DNA of 50,709 nt from Escherichia phage vojen: the sequence record NC_049824.1; one strand, written 5' to 3'. Shown here in pieces: positions 9,924-39,430 of the stretch. The notes beneath the pieces were generated by a model. That model was not told the origin of the DNA. It did not search any database and worked only from the letters and a program-made list of their open reading frames with translations. The position numbers were made by a program, and so were the translations under genes. Numbering within the stretch: the first letter of the stretch is position 1; each line of letters begins with the position of its first letter.

Positions 9924-9930
9924 ACAACTA

Positions 9931-9955
9931 CCCGCCAAATGGCGGGTTTTTTATT
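9931..9955 (+). terminator. Rho-independent terminator
   Basis: CCCGCC-AAAT-GGCGGG hairpin followed by TTTTTTATT. Confidence 0.8.
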
Positions 9956-10003
9956 GCCTGCAATTTGTCTATAATGATGCTTTGTTATAAAGGAGGGCGC
10001 ATT

Positions 10004-16345: not shown

Positions 16346-16365
16346 CGTTTAACAAAAAATGCTAT
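16346..16365 (-). promoter_or_regulatory. Conserved element, inverted relative to the downstream plus-strand gene
   Basis: Plus strand reads TTTAACAAAAAATGCTAT; orientation is opposite to the canonical arrangement. Confidence 0.4.
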
Positions 16366-16411
16366 CATTGGGGCGTTACATACTAACAGCCTTTATATAT
16401 GGAGGAAGAAA

Positions 16412-20067: not shown

Positions 20068-20106
20068 GTTACTGTACAATCAAGCTACACGATTCATAAT
20101 CAATTC

Positions 20107-20125
20107 TTTTAACAAAAAGTGCTAT
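20107..20125 (-). promoter_or_regulatory. Conserved element, inverted relative to the downstream plus-strand gene
   Basis: Plus strand reads TTTTAACAAAAAGTGCTAT immediately before the RBS of the tail chaperone gene. Confidence 0.45.
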
Positions 20126-20138
20126 CAAGGAGAAAGAA

Positions 20139-23835: not shown

Positions 23836-23860
23836 AAGCCGCCTTTGTGCGGCTTTTTTA
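23836..23860 (+). terminator. Rho-independent terminator
   Basis: AAGCCGC-CTTTGT-GCGGCTT hairpin followed by TTTTTTATT. Confidence 0.75.
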
Positions 23861-23893
23861 TTGATGATACAATGCACGAAAGGAGGTGCAATT

Positions 23894-33842: not shown

Positions 33843-33866
33843 CAAGGGGGCATTACGCCCCTTTTT
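33843..33866 (+). terminator. Putative terminator after ssb
   Basis: GGGGG...CCCC hairpin followed by TTTTT. Confidence 0.5.
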
Positions 33867-34110
33867 CACTTTCAGCCATCCCAAGAACGGCAATAACCTT
33901 AACAGCAATTCGCTTTGCAAGTTCGGTTTGATGAGCGTTAAGTTTTCCAGTGGTCATTATTGACAACATTCCGGTCATACTTCCAAGCCCGTTAAAATCT
34001 GACATTGCCGATTTCATGATTGATATTGGTGAGTGACCTTCATCAGCTATTGTATGCGCTCTCTCTGACAGGTCTTTAACTACCTGATCTATTCCTTCAC
34101 TTTTCGTCAT
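33853..34110 (-). CDS. hypothetical protein (85 aa)
   Basis: ORF on minus strand; last gene of the minus-strand tail-fibre block. Confidence 0.45.
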   Translation of the reverse strand: MTKSEGIDQVVKDLSERAHTIADEGHSPISIMKSAMSDFNGLGSMTGMLSIMTTGKLNAHQTELAKRIAVKVIAVLGMAESEKGA

Positions 34111-34588
34111 TTTCTTTTCCTTCAGGAGTTGATTGCTGTTCTGGCATTACAGGCCACGGGCTAATTGATTCCCTTTCTGCTACTGGTTTTTCAGGTTCAA
34201 TACCTAAAAACTTTCCTACAAACTCACCAACAAAATTTGAACTATCGCTTACATAAACATGCATTCTGTCAAGATCTGCAACTGTAACGCTGTTTGGTGC
34301 GATCATAATTCGCTGTTGGTGAAAACCGATATACATCACATTTGCCGGACGCTCAATAGTTCCCATATTTGGCGCAATTACACCCATTATCCAACAATAA
34401 TGAATATTGCCATCAAGCGGCTCACATCCGGCGTTAAGCCAGTTTACTTTCTGGTGTGGGAATGCCATTGATGAATCAGTAGCATCACGCCGCAACGACC
34501 ATTTAACGCCGCCAATCTCAATGATTTGTTTCGGCCTCATTCCGTTGAATTGAGTCACGCCAGCGCCATTTTGATTAATGTTTTGCAT
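34097..34588 (-). CDS. hypothetical protein (163 aa)
   Basis: ORF on minus strand downstream of the tail-fibre genes. Confidence 0.5.
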   Translation of the reverse strand: MQNINQNGAGVTQFNGMRPKQIIEIGGVKWSLRRDATDSSMAFPHQKVNWLNAGCEPLDGNIHYCWIMGVIAPNMGTIERPANVMYIGFHQQRIMIAPNSVTVADLDRMHVYVSDSSNFVGEFVGKFLGIEPEKPVAERESISPWPVMPEQQSTPEGKENDEK

Positions 34589-34602
34589 ATCGGTTTACCT
34601 TG

Positions 34603-34926
34603 TTACATTGATTTCATTTTACGCAATGCGCAGATACAAGCGGCAGCAAGATCGGTTAATTCTTTCTCAATGCCATGATGCGAGCCATCTACCTTTTCTG
34701 TCATTAGCTCTTTGTATTCCATTTCTACAATCGACATTAAGCCGCCTGGCTTGTCAATGTGCGCGTCCCAGGTTTTAGGATAGTGCTTAGTTCTTTCCAT
34801 AACACTTCCCATAACTGAATCATGTTTGCTATCTCGCTCATAATCATCATCATGATCATCACTCCCGATTGAAACTCGCGGCAAATGAATGCGCGGTATT
34901 TTATAGCCAGCATAACGGATCTTCAT
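34603..34926 (-). CDS. hypothetical protein (107 aa)
   Basis: ORF on minus strand. Confidence 0.45.
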   Translation of the reverse strand: MKIRYAGYKIPRIHLPRVSIGSDDHDDDYERDSKHDSVMGSVMERTKHYPKTWDAHIDKPGGLMSIVEMEYKELMTEKVDGSHHGIEKELTDLAAACICALRKMKSM

Positions 34927-34975
34927 TATCTCGCCCTCTTGATGAAAAGCGCCCCGAAAGGCGCTTGATTTATTA

Positions 34976-35677
34976 TTAGCCGCAGCAGCCAGTAGGCGGA
35001 GTCTGCGGAGTAGGCAACTTGAAGTTTACCAATTGCTCTACCTGGTTGATTTTGCAATTCAGTGCGGCGGTCTGGTTTGCCTGAGATAGAGCAAAACGCG
35101 CTTCCTGCAATTGAGCTTTCATATCGCAAATCAAAACAGCCTGAGAATCAGCGAACTGTTGACGAATCAGATCTCGCGTTGCGTTACCTTGTCGCTCAAT
35201 GTTCAAGTTAGTCTCGCAGCAGCATCTCTCCGCTGCAATCTGTGCCTGATAGGAACGCTCAAGAGCATTAACATCAGCAGCATTAATCGCAGCAACTGTC
35301 TGGTTAGTACCGTTAACAATCGCGGTATTCAGTCCGGCGAAACCTTGCACCGATGCAAGCAGGTTTTGCGTATTCTGGCTGGTAATGCCGTTAAATGTTG
35401 ATGCGGCGGAGCGCTCAACGGCAAGGTTTGTGGAGTTTTGGCCTTGCAGAGTTTGCAGTCCCAGGTTGTTTACGCCTGTCTGGATGTTATTAATACCATC
35501 AAGAACAGCGTTAGCACCGACAGCAACAGCCGCACCATCACCACCATAACCACCACGACCATTAAAGCCGTTACCAAACCATGACCCAATCAGGCCGCCA
35601 ACAGCACCACCAAGACCAGCCGCGCCAGCTTCGCCACCAAAACCACCACCAGTAGGGAGTAAAGTCATATCTGACAT
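34976..35677 (-). CDS. glycine-rich protein with cysteine clusters (233 aa)
   Basis: N-terminal ~50 aa Gly-rich; Asn/Gln/Thr-rich middle; CCCETN and terminal TGCCG; GAGGA RBS. Confidence 0.55.
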   Translation of the reverse strand: MSDMTLLPTGGGFGGEAGAAGLGGAVGGLIGSWFGNGFNGRGGYGGDGAAVAVGANAVLDGINNIQTGVNNLGLQTLQGQNSTNLAVERSAASTFNGITSQNTQNLLASVQGFAGLNTAIVNGTNQTVAAINAADVNALERSYQAQIAAERCCCETNLNIERQGNATRDLIRQQFADSQAVLICDMKAQLQEARFALSQANQTAALNCKINQVEQLVNFKLPTPQTPPTGCCG

Positions 35678-35811: not shown

Positions 35812-35838
35812 GAAAAAAAGCGCAGCCGGAGCCGCGCT
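35812..35838 (-). terminator. Rho-independent terminator after the tail-fibre gene
   Basis: Minus-strand AGCGC-loop-GCGCT hairpin followed by TTTTTTT. Confidence 0.7.
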
Positions 35839-35854
35839 TGAGTTAAAAAGATTG

Positions 35855-37870
35855 TTATTTATTGAGCAGTGCAGCAACAGCCGCCTTTAATTCGTCTATC
35901 TCCTTTTGCTGTTTTTCGATCATTCCTCCCATGTAAACCATAGCGCAAGCCATATCAGTTAGCATAACGTTGCTATCAAGCGCTAAGGTATCATCCTTTC
36001 TGTCAGTTTCAATCTGGCGATCAATGTATTCCTCGCCATTTTCATCAACCCCGATCACATCTTCAAATACTGGCGAGCCTGGGACAAGTTTCACGTATTG
36101 CGGATCGATTTTTAACAGGTCTTGAGCTATCAGGCCAAAACGCTGGATATCAGATCCATTGTATTTAAACATGGTTGGCAACCATTGCATCACGCGATCA
36201 TAGCTTTCCTTTCCGTCCGTGTACTGAATATCGTGCTTTAAATCACGATCAGATGTTGGGTTTTTTGCAAAGTCATAGTTTCCACCCCACGGATCATTAC
36301 CCCAAGAATAAATGTCACCAGACTTACCAAAATTATATGCGCGATGATAACGACCATCACCTAACATGTGAATAGCAACCTGAGGCCAATCGGTAGTGCC
36401 GTCTGAAATAATACCTAAAGACGTTCTCATATAGTAACCACCGTCAGACTGAGAGCCACCTGACACTATCGGGGACCAGCCGCTGTTATTTTTATTAACG
36501 GTGTCAGCCCAAAACGGAGTTAACCTGTTATCTGCATCGGCGTCCCAGCCACCCATATAGCAACGACCCATAAAACCACGCGGCGATCTTATATACCCGC
36601 TAGCCTGAGTGTCATTCGGCTCAGGTATGAAGTTAAAAACGACACCGGAGTATCCTGGTTTATTTGGACTAATGTATAGCTGGGCATTATTTAGATCCGT
36701 TCCTTCGCCCCTGACTGCTCCGAACTGCCAGTATCCATCGTACCAATTCCCTTGCAATAGGTTTACCCACCCACCTGGAGAGGAGTCGCCACCGATGTTC
36801 GTCAGATATATGCGTTTATCACCACCAACATCAGTTTTACAGCCGACAATGTGAGTTTGCGGCACTAGAATATCGCCGTCTGTAGCCGTAATGCTCTTAA
36901 ATTGAACGTCTTGCGCATTTCCAAGCCCAAGATTATTACGAGCACCTGCGGCATCAGTTGCCCCAGTCCCACCAGTCGCAATTTCAAATGGCTTGGTGTC
37001 AGATCCGTCACCTTTCTGATAAACTAGTAATCCGTCATCTCTGATAACCAGCCTATAAGATCCTGTTGGCGAGTAAATAAGCGTATGTGCACCAAGGGTA
37101 TCAAAAGGACCGATTCGCATGTTTTGACGAGCAATTTCTATGTTAGATAGATCTGAAAGGTTCGCATCTTTTCTAAGAAGATTTTCAGCATCAAGGCTTT
37201 TAGCAAATTCTTCGGCCTCATTGCGCGCCATAACAGCGCCGTTTTTTGCAGTTTCAGCGGCGTTATTTGCAGATTGAGCGCCAGTCATGTATTGCTGGGC
37301 TGAATCCCTTGCTGAAATAGCTTCGTTTTTCAGATTAGAAACATCACCCTTTATCTGATTCATTTCTGAAACAGCCTGATCTTTAGTTTGGTTTACAGCT
37401 AAAACACCTTGATCGCGTGCGGAATTAACTTCCGTTATCGCAGAATCTTTAATCTGTTGCGTTTGCGCCTTGATTGCGTTAGTGTCTGCTTTAACCTGAT
37501 TAGCCAGATCTTGCAACTGTTTTAGGTCAAAGTTTTTGAAAAATTCAATAGCTTCCTCGATCTGAGTTTCTTTGCTTTGATAGTAACGCAGCGTTTCCGC
37601 TACATCTTGCGCCAGGCCATCAACAGTGATTGAGTCATGCAGCAAAATAATGTAGTTGCTTCGCCCAATTTCAGCGCCGCCAGTTGTGATGGCGCGGATT
37701 TGTGTATCGCTGATAACTTCACTGATCACAGCCGCTTGAAATGGTGCATCAATGAAAAAGATTGTTGCACCAGGGCGAATGAGCGCTAGTTGCTCTCGCC
37801 ATTTCGTGTCGTATCCAGTGATATAACCCTGAGCGTCCATTGACGCTTGTCCGGTTCTGTAAATTGCCAT
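35855..37870 (-). CDS. tail fibre protein with C-terminal intramolecular chaperone (peptidase S74-like) domain
   Basis: Start moved to ATG with GGGAGA RBS; coiled-coil-like middle; C-terminal [11 protein letters not shown] segment resembling auto-cleaving chaperone domains. Confidence 0.7.
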
Positions 37871-37928
37871 GCGCTTTCTCCCATGTTGCATGTTAATGTC
37901 AATGAAGATAATAGCATTCGTTAAGGCC

Positions 37929-37951
37929 AAAAAAAACCCCGCAATGCGGGG
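37929..37951 (-). terminator. Rho-independent terminator after the primase gene
   Basis: Minus-strand CCCCGC-ATT-GCGGGG hairpin followed by TTTTTTTT. Confidence 0.8.
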
Positions 37952-37968
37952 TAAAGTAGCAGTGACAT

Positions 37969-38901
37969 TTAGAGAAGTGATTCAGGCTTGTAAACCTTCC
38001 TCTCTATCCCTTGCCTGTAATTATCATGAATCGGCATCATAATTTCAAGTCCTCTTTCCTCAGCAGCAATGATCGCGTCACGGTCTGTACTCTTACAGAC
38101 AACTCGCATTCTTCTGTTGCCTTTATACCTGTAAGCTACAATCTCAATGTTAGTTGCATCAAAGCAGGCCCAAACCTCTTGACCAGTTGCAAGGTGAATA
38201 TGTTGCGCATCAATCCAGTCAACGCAAAGATAGATCGTCTTATCTGTGCTTCCTGTTCTCACAATCGACCCGCGCGTGTAGTCCTTTGCGAGAAAAGACT
38301 TATTACCTTCTTCATCAATGAAAAGCACATTGCACATTTCATCATCAATTTCATCTGAATGTACCAGGTAACATGGGAGCGCGTGAATGTATCGACCATC
38401 TTTAACGCCGCATTCATAATAACCATCTTCAGGCGGATATATCCCTTCATATGTACTTAACGGGGTGCGATCAAATTTTAGTGTTTTCGACATAACTCGC
38501 TCGCAGCATTCATGGCTTGCCTGCTTCCCAAACGAATAACCAGAATCACGAGATACTCGCTTATTTGCCTTGATCCTATAGTCCTGCGGAACTTTTCCAA
38601 GAAAGCGGCCCAAAATATTGATCACTTCGCTGTAAGGTTCTCCGGTTAGCTTCATGATCCAACCAATTCCAGTATCGTTGCCGCACACGTTGCAGATAGC
38701 GCCGCCATCGCCTTTTTTATCGCCAAGTTTATCCGTCCATCTGAAGCGATCCTTTCCGCCGCAGTGGGGGCAAGATTGATGCTTGCCGTTAAAAACTTCA
38801 TTTGGAAGACCGCAAATACTTTGTAGCGCCTCACGCCACAATCCTTGCATATATGGGAGAACATCTTCTTTTTGATAAACCATAAAGTTTTCGTTATTCA
38901 T
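37969..38901 (-). CDS. DNA primase (zinc-binding domain type)
   Basis: [12 protein letters not shown]...CNVCG zinc-finger arrangement; start moved to ATG with GAGGTG RBS. Confidence 0.55.
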
Positions 38902-38956
38902 ATACACCTCAAACAAAAAAGCCTGACAGATGATAACATCATGCCAGGCATTGTTT

Positions 38957-39430
38957 TTAGCAATTAGTGCTTTCAGGTTTATACAGGAATCCGCCAGGTT
39001 CATAATCTGACATTCTTACCACTCGCAACATTTCACGCTTATCACATCTCTTTGTGAGCGGTTTTCCATTGGAATCAAATCGCAGATCTGGACGGCAGAA
39101 TGAAGCGCGATAGCCTTGACAGCCATACTTTTTGTAATCGTTATGCACCTTTTGAGCGCCAGCGGCTGAAATCATACCGCGAACGCGCCACTGATTTACA
39201 GTTTGCTGGCTAACGTTAAGACGCTTTGCCATTGCTGACACGCTGCCGTAATACTCAATAAGAATGTCAAGCCGTGCTTTTAGTCCGGCGCGCACTTCAT
39301 CTTTTAAAACATAGTATCCTGTAGGGCGCTTGCGCTTTTTCTTATCTTTACCCCGTCGAGTTCCGTTATTGCCATTGATTGTGCGTTTGTCAATCTTACC
39401 AGTTGATACTGCGATTCGCTGTTCTTTCAT
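38957..39430 (-). CDS. putative DNA-binding regulator (basic N-terminus, HTH-like segment)
   Basis: KDKKKRKRP basic stretch; LNVSQQTVNQWR HTH-like segment; GGAGA RBS; start abuts a conserved element in the divergent region. Confidence 0.5.
   Translation of the reverse strand: MKEQRIAVSTGKIDKRTINGNNGTRRGKDKKKRKRPTGYYVLKDEVRAGLKARLDILIEYYGSVSAMAKRLNVSQQTVNQWRVRGMISAAGAQKVHNDYKKYGCQGYRASFCRPDLRFDSNGKPLTKRCDKREMLRVVRMSDYEPGGFLYKPESTNC

Follow-up and report, generated by a model that had tools for sequence, protein, structure and literature searches.

How is a tail fibre gene expressed when its neighbours are replication genes and the other tail genes are on the opposite strand, and how does its product reach its mature form? 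The window analysed here, 50,709 nucleotides of Escherichia phage vojen (NC_049824.1), is the complete genome of a T1-like siphovirus of the genus Hanrivervirus (Drexlerviridae). Its tail module is on the + strand at about 19.4-30.5 kb. The fibre gene follows primase on the minus strand, opposite to the head-tail module as the initial annotation had placed it, and this gene order is shared with phages G29-2, SFP17, T1 and JakobBernoulli. The closest relative over the fibre region is Shigella phage SFP17 (94.9% DNA identity), in which the corresponding genes are annotated as tail fibre and primase. A DNA similarity search gave approximately 100 further Drexlerviridae matches to the fibre region, and the protein matches PHROG tail-fibre families (PHROG 5481, 1980 and 24159; best E 7e-133). 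For a T1-like phage of the genus Hanrivervirus this is an ordinary side tail-fibre gene. We think it likely that this gene is a self-contained, single-gene transcription unit with its own extended -10 promoter, and that its product carries a C-terminal chaperone that removes itself. The features discussed below are collected in Table 1.

Table 1. Features of the lateral tail fibre locus (positions in the window)
Feature	Position	Strand	Description
Lateral (side) tail fibre gene	35855..37870	minus	ATG 37870; stop 35855-35857 included; 671 aa, 73.6 kDa precursor
Intrinsic terminator ending the regulator-primase transcript	37936..37952	minus	7-bp stem with 6 GC pairs, then 8 T; -15.3 kcal/mol, z -3.4
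Candidate extended -10 element TGcTATTAT	37908..37916	minus	TATTAT 37913-37908, TG 37916-37915; putative function
Predicted transcription start zone	37899..37903	minus	~5-9 nt 3' of the -10, leader ~30 nt; from sigma-70 promoter geometry
Ribosome-binding site GGGAGA	37877..37882	minus	6 nt 5' of the ATG; conserved in Hanrivervirus relatives
N-terminal virion-anchor domain	37490..37870	minus	aa 1-127; sole part conserved across the whole family
Coiled-coil shaft	37061..37489	minus	about aa 128-270
Beta-rich distal part, presumed receptor-binding	36254..36973	minus	aa 300-539; beta-strand model
Intramolecular chaperone / Peptidase_S74 domain	35858..36253	minus	aa 540-671, 15.1 kDa; basis includes PMC4690869
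Intrinsic terminator closing the fibre unit	35818..35839	minus	9-bp stem, then 7 T; -16.5 kcal/mol, z -4.6

We found that the fibre reading frame should be shortened at its 5' end. As listed, the open reading frame encodes 691 amino acids (35855..37930, minus strand) and opens at a TTG codon. We rejected TTG 37930 as the start codon: it lies inside the T-tract of the primase terminator, it has no ribosome-binding site, and homologues begin with MAIYR. We take ATG 37870 to be the real start because it is preceded by a ribosome-binding site, because the N-terminus (MAIYRTGQ...) can be aligned, from its first residue on, with homologues and PDB 7VYV/7LZJ, and because the fibres of SFP17 and JakobBernoulli are annotated from the equivalent codon.

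Two strong intrinsic terminators bracket the fibre gene. We compared their folding with that of 200 shuffles, and neither terminator was matched in folding energy by any of them. A hairpin equivalent to the primase terminator is annotated in G29-2 and is present in relatives; the terminator after the fibre gene is annotated in G29-2 as well. An Rfam scan of the whole window matched no family. Flanked in this way by terminators, the fibre gene forms a single-gene unit, and the independent transcription that had been proposed for it holds as far as sequence analysis can tell.

Between the primase terminator and the fibre ATG is a candidate extended -10 promoter, TGCTATTAT, that begins 19 nt past the T-tract and ends 37 nt before the ATG. 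Its hexamer matches the -10 consensus at 5/6 positions, with A at position 2, T at position 6 and TG one base upstream, and so fits the definition of an extended -10 element. The initial annotation had recognized the motif correctly; its coordinates (37903-37911) were about 5 nt off, the element actually lying at 37916-37908. It had also described the site as lacking a clear -35, and we found this to be correct: the place expected for a -35 is occupied by the terminator's T-tract (TTTTTT, 2/6). A scan for canonical promoters did not list the TGCTATTAT site, and it found no canonical -35/-10 promoter between the terminator and the ATG. Two further candidates were rejected: TTGAAA-17-GATAAT (38048-38020) is upstream of the terminator, inside primase, and TTGACA (~37901-37896) has no -10 at 16-18 nt. 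The motif is not enriched in the window, where TGNTATAAT with no more than one mismatch occurs 60 times (56.5 expected). The motif itself is at chance frequency; the significance of the candidate promoter comes from its position and from its conservation in relatives.

We found that a -10 element at this position is retained across the family. Fibre leaders were compared among sequence classes from 25 IMG/VR loci together with T1, G29-2, SFP17 and JakobBernoulli. All of the classes compared have a 5/6 -10 hexamer 28-44 nt upstream of the fibre ATG, and eight fibre-leader classes have the TG. The TLS class has no TG but has a -35 at 17 bp (TTGCAT-17-CATAAT). T1 (TTGCAA-17-TGaTAAAAT) and one IMG/VR locus, L025, have both TG and a 4/6 -35. 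Every Drexlerviridae lineage in the comparison, T1 and TLS among them, has kept a -10 at the fibre position together with TG or a -35. At two loci (L023 and L024) the upstream neighbour is ssb instead of primase, yet both the terminator and TGCTATTAT are kept. Within the genus the entire leader is conserved, so close relatives say nothing about the -10 in particular. Taken together, the placement of the element and its retention across lineages, including the trade-off between TG and -35, argue for function as a promoter. A search of the literature for Drexlerviridae transcript maps, transcription start sites or RNA-seq data found none.

Based on these comparisons we suggest that the upstream regulator-primase transcript would stop at its strong intrinsic terminator, and that host sigma-70 RNA polymerase would re-initiate 19 nt past the T-tract at TGcTATTAT, with no need for a -35. 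The transcript would have a leader of approximately 30 nt that includes the GGGAGA ribosome-binding site, and it would end at the second terminator, directly past the stop codon. The two terminators and the promoter would insulate a structural gene that is located among replication genes and on the opposite strand to the other tail genes.

It is also conceivable, although in our judgement unlikely, that the fibre gene lacks its own promoter and depends on polymerase reading through the primase terminator, having started at a promoter upstream of primase or of the regulator gene, a 157-aa reading frame at 38960-39430 on the minus strand. In that case TGCTATTAT would be an AT-rich match due to chance or ancestry. 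Termination at intrinsic terminators is leaky, and part of the fibre mRNA may indeed stem from read-through. There are promoters upstream on the same strand (TTGAGT-16-TATAAT at 39509-39482 and TGtTATCAT at 38938-38930), the extended -10 motif class is at chance frequency, and the many internal terminators in the late regions of T1-like phages suggest that read-through or antitermination is common. However, the primase terminator is strong (6 GC pairs, 8 U, -15.3 kcal/mol), and a structural gene transcribed in this way would share the timing of primase. Furthermore, the -10 has been kept in place where its flanks have diverged beyond alignment, including in the lineage with a different upstream gene and in the lineage that has exchanged TG for a -35.

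We found that the candidate fibre promoter does not belong to the promoter class associated with the Drexlerviridae 21-nt repeat, aaATAGCACnnnTTGnTAAAA. In that class a copy of the repeat ends 18-19 nt upstream of the -10; the TGtTATCAT promoter at 38938-38930, just before primase, is one that is associated with the repeat. A scan of the window allowing up to three mismatches gave 20 copies of the repeat, none of them upstream of the fibre gene, where only an inverted ATAGCA half-box overlaps the -10. On the + strand, the sequence at 37911 reads ATAGCATTCGTTAAGG and resembles the repeat variants ATAGCATTTTTTGTTAAAC. The conserved AATGCTA box found there, whose reverse complement is TAGCATT, is similar to the repeat's core, ATAGCAC. 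PMC11447400 lists the function of the repeat among the open questions, and a literature search for the repeat sequence, entered verbatim, brought up nothing but unrelated primers.

Several of these likenesses would be expected if the AATGCTA box were mainly a binding site for a factor that recognizes the 21-nt repeat and times fibre expression, for example by occluding the -10. The major capsid promoter, TGCTATCAT (16360-16368), sits within a near-complete inverted repeat, and the fibre leader of T1-type phages contains the 21-nt repeat as a full inverted copy, which is degenerate in the window. In addition, the C of TGC is conserved in 7/9 lineages, more than an extended -10 requires: sigma-70 does not need a C at the free position of TGcTA, and its conservation may reflect shared ancestry or another bound factor. 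Nevertheless, we regard this account as very doubtful. ATAGCA hexamers are not enriched overall (37 in the window, 30 expected), there is only a half-site at the fibre gene, the sequence in T1 itself is TGATAAAAT, TLS lacks any such box, and we know of no protein that binds this repeat.

A wider scheme, to which we give little credence, would divide the promoters into two classes. Early and middle genes, including primase, would have the repeat ATAGCACnnnTTGnTAAAA 18-19 nt from the -10. Structural genes (fibre, small terminase and major capsid) would have a -10 just after a terminator or overlapping an inverted ATAGCA box, and a single repeat-binding factor would switch expression from early to late through both classes. 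If this were true, the terminator-promoter cassette of the fibre gene would give it late timing inside a block of early genes.

Whatever the route of transcription, the 671-residue product is made up of four parts. The anchor (aa 1-127) is followed by a shaft that is a coiled coil, then by a beta-rich part that is exchangeable and presumably binds the receptor, and finally by a chaperone of 132 residues. Across the 25 IMG/VR loci, aa 1-160 are 55-85% identical, and DNA similarity to distant relatives ends near aa 124-130. This is in line with a previous report that Drexlerviridae fibres are related only at the far N-terminus (PMC8594841). The fibre N-terminus matches residues 1-166 of PDB 7VYV, 7VZ3 and 7LZJ (E 3e-49), with 167 fibre residues matching the anchors of these Drexlerviridae depolymerases. 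The three structures are Klebsiella Webervirus capsule depolymerases, and the 166 homologous residues are the Drexlerviridae virion-attachment domain. Downstream of it they have a beta-helix depolymerase, whereas the protein encoded in the window has a fibre tip and chaperone.

With 35 residues (5 heptads) fewer, the shaft is shorter than those of SFP17 and JakobBernoulli, and the gap is after aa 127. The near-identical N-terminal part of JakobBernoulli Gp36 has been described as an elongated coiled coil (PMC11990801). Homologues of the distal part were found in Salmonella, Citrobacter, Klebsiella and E. coli genomes, and this part is an exchangeable allele common to the fibres of enterobacterial prophages. 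A fold search with the monomer model gave no confident match for the receptor-binding part besides a weak whole-chain alignment to 4UW8.

We found that the C-terminus of the fibre is a Peptidase_S74 domain. The initial annotation had proposed a chaperone segment in the C-terminal ~130 residues and named a profile search as a check. That search matched Pfam PF13884 (Peptidase_S74) at aa 540-594, far beyond chance (E 9.5e-9; 35.9 bits, cut-off 22). The 11-residue chaperone-type segment that had been singled out is at aa 540-550 (36253-36221 in the window) and opens the Pfam match. The catalytic residues Ser540 (codon 36251-36253) and Lys545 (codon 36236-36238) are invariant in 44 aligned homologues. 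The predicted scissile bond, T539-S540, with Lys at +5, matches Thr1263-Ser1264 and Lys1269 of the T5 fibre (PMC4690869). A phmmer search with the full-length protein against PDB found the N-terminal anchor only; the chaperone was found by the Pfam profile, by fold search and by a phmmer search with the C-terminus as query, which matched the L-shaped tail fibre chain 8HQZ_d with Ser and Lys aligned. Together with the PHROG matches and the homology of the anchor, these results bear out the early description of the gene as a tail fibre with a C-terminal chaperone.

An AF2 model (pLDDT 79.6) comprises a region of mixed alpha/beta structure, then a long beta-hairpin and, at the C-terminus, a helix of 38 residues (in fragment numbering, H255-262, E267-280, H283-289, hairpin E301-325 and H334-371). 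The model is a monomer; the functional protein is an intertwined trimer. At the top of the Foldseek results were the MyRF ICA domain 7DC3, with probability 1.00 and a TM on target of 0.59-0.63, and 4UW8, which is T5 pb1 including its chaperone (probability 0.99). T5 pb1 has a C-terminal chaperone of approximately 133 residues with a Thr-Ser scissile bond, a Lys five residues past the Ser, and the same sequence of mixed alpha/beta part, long beta-hairpin and long coiled-coil helix. The two proteins differ in that sequence identity is only ~13% and pb1 is 1396 aa long with a different anchor. The whole-model TM score against pb1 is low because the comparison set a monomer model against an intertwined trimer. 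T5 and K1F have Arg and Asp residues in the passenger domain, beside the scissile bond, that act as a folding sensor (Arg1250 and Asp1239 in T5). Cleavage of pb1 has been demonstrated, whereas for the fibre in the window we infer it. The C-terminal chaperones of endosialidases (K1F/K1E), the founding members of PF13884 / MEROPS S74, have the same spacing of the Ser-Lys dyad, and the profile match begins exactly at the catalytic Ser. This likeness is one of the sequence profile, and the endosialidase passenger is a sialidase tailspike as opposed to the fibre tip here.

If it works like those of T5 pb1 and K1F endosialidase, the chaperone would template folding of the trimer and afterwards release itself at T539-S540 by means of the Ser540/Lys545 dyad, leaving a mature subunit of 58.6 kDa. 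That the mature fibre instead keeps the S74-like domain, as a cap with a structural or receptor-binding role, seems highly improbable: a 78 kDa virion band of TLS has been tentatively related to Gp55, which has an S74 domain and a predicted mass of 74.1 kDa and would thus be uncleaved if the assignment is correct (PMC11447400), but that band was assigned by size alone, the catalytic Ser and Lys are invariant in the homologues, and the Thr-Ser context is identical to that of T5, in which only the processed fibre competes for receptor (PMC4690869).

The closest known systems are SFP17_018 (MN432485) and JakobBernoulli (Bas07) Gp36, both of Hanrivervirus and both at the same locus downstream of primase. 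They share the terminator, TGCTATTAT promoter and leader of the window, as well as the anchor, shaft and Peptidase_S74 C-terminus of its fibre. SFP17_018 is 88% identical overall. In Gp36, which has been described as a coiled coil with a T5-like tip and an intramolecular chaperone (PMC11990801), the receptor-binding part bears no relation to that in the window, and identity over the chaperone is only about 30%. The loci of T1 gp26 and TLS Gp55 likewise come after primase and run opposite to the tail genes, with a terminator and then a -10. TLS Gp55 has the S74 domain; T1 gp26 ends in PF25670 instead. In T1, late genes have been proposed to be terminator-flanked modules with RpoD promoters, the "transcripton" model (Roberts 2004, as cited in PMC11447400).

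What is seen here has precedents in relatives, namely JakobBernoulli Gp36, TLS Gp55 and the T1 "transcriptons". A fibre with such a chaperone and this locus layout is on record within the genus, is nothing new for the family and leaves current understanding unchanged. The main use of the analysis is correct annotation of the fibre start codon, the predicted maturation site and the exchangeable receptor-binding module, all of which are useful for host-range engineering of T1-like phages. The putative promoter is a further instance in line with the long-standing proposal that terminator-flanked expression modules make up the genomes of these phages.

Elsewhere in the window, a -10 element also occurs shortly after a terminator before the small terminase gene (TATAAT, 22 nt past a stem ending at 9947) and before the gene after 23855 (TGaTACAAT).

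We found that the tail fibre of phage vojen (671 aa, 73.6 kDa) ends in a predicted self-cleaving chaperone domain. The initial annotation had placed an 11-residue segment of the auto-cleaving chaperone type near the C-terminus and proposed a profile search. The segment is there (aa 540-550), and the search returned Pfam PF13884 (Peptidase_S74, 'chaperone of endosialidase') at aa 540-594 (E 9.5e-9, exceeding the gathering score). With the last 152 residues as query, phmmer matched 8HQZ_d, a chain of an L-shaped tail fibre, in an alignment that pairs the Ser and the Lys. Searching with aa 300-671 gave 78 database homologues, all (78/78) already annotated with PF13884; when 44 of these were aligned, S540 and K545 were invariant. 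AlphaFold2 modelled aa 300-671 (pLDDT 79.6) as a beta-rich body, then a mixed alpha/beta region, and finally a long beta-hairpin and a terminal helix of 38 residues. Among PDB structures, Foldseek ranked highest the MyRF ICA domain (7DC3; probability 1.00, TM on target about 0.6) and, at probability 0.99, 4UW8, in which T5 pb1 is present with its intramolecular chaperone. In T5, Ser1264, activated by Lys1269, cuts the Thr1263-Ser1264 bond, and only the processed fibre competes for receptor (PMC4690869). T539|S540 and K545 of the vojen fibre are arranged like these T5 residues, and cleavage is predicted to leave a 58.6 kDa mature subunit and to release a 15.1 kDa chaperone. The S74 domain is also found in SFP17_018, Bas07 (JakobBernoulli) Gp36 and TLS Gp55; T1 gp26, in contrast, ends in PF25670.

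The fibre finding is correct and already known, since the architecture (coiled coil, T5-like tip and intramolecular chaperone) has been published for JakobBernoulli Gp36, from the same genus (PMC11990801), and the gene is annotated in Shigella phage SFP17, at about 95% DNA identity. The same architecture has been published for Cronobacter Drexlerviridae (PMC12090712), and TLS Gp55 has been related to 4UW8 via HHpred (PMC11447400). The sole unpublished element is the specific promoter call, itself a routine deduction.

The 2.5 kb around the fibre gene is 94.9% identical to SFP17, in which this stretch carries the annotations tail fibre and DNA primase; about 100 further Drexlerviridae records also match. 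Along the window the genes follow the order of SFP17, G29-2 and T1. Small early genes come first, then, on the + strand as far as about 30.5 kb, those for terminase, portal, capsid and tail. Recombination genes are next, and after them come a minus-strand block (regulator, primase, tail fibre), helicase and the remaining genes. From these matches and this order we take the window to be a complete Hanrivervirus genome. Twenty unannotated 'Campylobacter phage' records of 47-50 kb in GenBank (MG065640-MG065687) share 86-91% identity with this region of the Escherichia/Shigella-type Hanrivervirus; their host labels may be wrong, or they may be T1-like phage contaminants.

The fibre starts at an ATG with GGGAGA upstream. 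Alignments of its N-terminus (MAIYRTGQ) with SFP17_018, JakobBernoulli Gp36 and the solved depolymerase anchors 7VYV/7LZJ begin at residue 1. The TTG start of a longer listed ORF was rejected; it falls within the T-tract of the primase terminator.

Coordinates of features in and around the fibre locus and of related elements
Feature	Position	Strand	Detail
Fibre gene	ATG 37870, stop 35855-35857	-	
Listed ORF, TTG start	35855..37930		691 aa
GGGAGA	37882-37877		
Fibre extended -10	37916-37908		
Primase terminator	37952-37936		-15.3 kcal/mol
Fibre terminator	35839-35818		-16.5 kcal/mol
Missing 35-residue shaft segment	about 37489/37490		between fibre aa 127 and 128; alignment with SFP17_018, JakobBernoulli Gp36
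Candidate promoter TTGAGT-16-TATAAT	39509-39482		
Candidate promoter TGtTATCAT	38938-38930		repeat at 38973
Primase ORF, mechanical call	37969-39003	-	344 aa
Primase extension	38901-39003	-	
Small terminase gene promoter-like site	9930-9975	+	TATAAT 22 nt past stem ending 9947
-10 site of gene at about 23861	23836-23873	+	TGaTACAAT after terminator 23836-23855
Four conserved genes	33853-35677	-	
First of the four	34976-35677	-	233 aa
21-nt repeat starts	1154(-), 2478(+), 2941(+), 3972(+), 5189(+), 6491(+), 7839(+), 30791(-), 32281(+), 38973(-), 39444(+), 41967(+), 42987(+), 48121(-), 48797(-)		
Degenerate repeat copies	12090(+), 26022(+)		
Inverted copies, late-gene control regions	16347-16368, 20100-20128	+	
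Inverted copy, T1 fibre leader (L028)	34899-34920	-	
Inverted copies, fibre leaders of relatives L011, L018, L021, L025			

At the DNA level, distant family members resemble the fibre gene in the anchor alone, the similarity ending near aa 124-130, in agreement with the report that relatedness among Drexlerviridae lateral fibres is confined to the far N-terminus (PMC8594841). SFP17_018 is collinear with the vojen fibre (88% identity). JakobBernoulli Gp36 is nearly identical to it up to about aa 250, but beyond that its tip is unrelated and its chaperone shares only 30% identity. In both, the shaft is longer by 35 residues, exactly five heptads. Repeated QIKDSA / KADTNAIK segments flank the missing stretch, which suggests that the length difference arose by recombination between shaft repeats. 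Genomes of Salmonella, Citrobacter, Klebsiella and E. coli likewise encode fibre proteins with this tip and chaperone allele. The fibre locus of Shigella phage 2019SD1 (L004; IMGVR_UViG_2974632794_000001) gave several overlapping matches to anchor and shaft (4 places, duplicated segments), which suggests that it has undergone a tandem duplication or holds a second copy of the fibre gene.

An extended -10 promoter without a clear -35 had also been proposed for the fibre. The element, TGCTATTAT, is present, about 5 nt from where it had been placed. The -35 position indeed reads TTTTTT, and for this reason a canonical promoter scan did not list the site. Allowing at most one mismatch, we counted 60 occurrences of TGNTATAAT in the window (56.5 expected). 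The fibre -10 motif alone is not special, and the case for a promoter rests on sequence comparison. We compared upstream regions from 25 IMG/VR loci (obtained by an anchor-domain search) and from T1, G29-2, SFP17 and JakobBernoulli, which form about nine classes. All have a terminator and then a 5/6 -10 hexamer ending 28-44 nt upstream of the ATG. The TG extension is present in eight of the approximately nine classes; the TLS class is without TG but has TTGCAT at 17-bp spacing, and in T1 and L025 the TG is combined with a 4/6 -35. None of 200 shuffles was as stable as the vojen terminators. In two metagenomic relatives (L023 and L024) the gene immediately upstream of the fibre, in the same orientation, is ssb and not primase, and the end of the ssb C-terminal tail (DFDDDIPF, then stop) is visible upstream. 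Both keep the terminator and TGCTATTAT despite this neighbor, which argues that the element travels with the fibre gene.

This layout fits an earlier proposal for T1, in which the late genes form 'transcriptons' flanked by terminators and equipped with RpoD promoters (PMC11447400, citing Roberts 2004). We found no transcription-start data for any Drexlerviridae member in the literature searched. Other late genes have a layout like that of the fibre, for example the small terminase gene and one at about 23861: a strong terminator, then a -10, with the -35 position in a T-tract or hairpin.

The most likely mechanism combines termination, re-initiation, single-gene transcription, a trimer chaperone and self-cleavage. 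Host RNA polymerase would end the regulator-primase transcript at 37936 and re-initiate at about 37900 from a -35-independent extended -10 promoter; the fibre gene would be transcribed alone, stopping at 35818. The precursor would trimerise on its C-terminal chaperone, which would excise itself at T539|S540, and the mature fibre would be joined to the tail via aa 1-127. The distal part may bind a surface glycan, as other Drexlerviridae and T5 suggest by analogy (PMC8594841). Promoter activity, cleavage and receptor are all things that we infer. Read-through may contribute to fibre expression, and two candidate promoters lie upstream (TTGAGT-16-TATAAT and the repeat-associated TGtTATCAT). However, read-through leaves retention of the -10 across diverged lineages unexplained, and we favor re-initiation at the fibre's own promoter. 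A chaperone that stays on the fibre uncleaved is suggested by a 78 kDa TLS band, assigned by size, the sole pointer to this outcome; self-cleavage is the reading we prefer.

The 10-mer GTGCTATTTA led us to a 21-nt repeat, aaATAGCACnnnTTGnTAAAA, known in TLS, T1, Rtp and Rogue1, with its function listed as an open question (PMC11447400). The Drexlerviridae direct repeat (ATAGCACnnnTTGnTAAAA) has 20 copies in the window with at most three mismatches, versus 2.3 in shuffles. In 15 of the 20, a -10-like hexamer (at least 5/6) lies exactly 18-19 nt downstream, followed by an RBS and ATG; we estimate the chance rate of such spacing at about 1% per copy. Because of these 15 copies, the repeat appears to form the upstream half of a promoter class for early/middle genes. 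The genes that follow copies with a -10 are early and middle ones, among them primase, helicase, erf and cor. The fibre is outside this class.

Inverted copies of the repeat lie within late-gene control regions and in fibre leaders of relatives. In the major capsid promoter (TTGCAC-16-TGCTATCAT) an inverted copy forms the spacer and TGCTAT, and at a tail gene one lies between CATAAT and the RBS. T1-type phages have a full inverted repeat between the fibre -10 and RBS, whereas the vojen fibre leader retains only TTAACAtgcaacatgg. The conserved AATGCTA could, on thin grounds, be an inverted half-site of this repeat acting as a regulator box.

The primase seems to have a promoter of its own. The mechanical primase ORF overlaps the regulator gene. 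A start at 38901 is likely the correct one, because the extension contains a repeat-type promoter and the primase of relatives is annotated as 933 bp, equivalent to that start.

We inspected the 140-nt gap past the fibre terminator and saw no clear promoter. Four conserved genes of unknown function follow on the same strand as the fibre (PHROGs 9288, 9157, 8329 and 7239; no Pfam match); this block is absent from T1. In the product of the first, the N-terminus is rich in Gly and Cys residues are clustered (CCCETN and a C-terminal GCCG).
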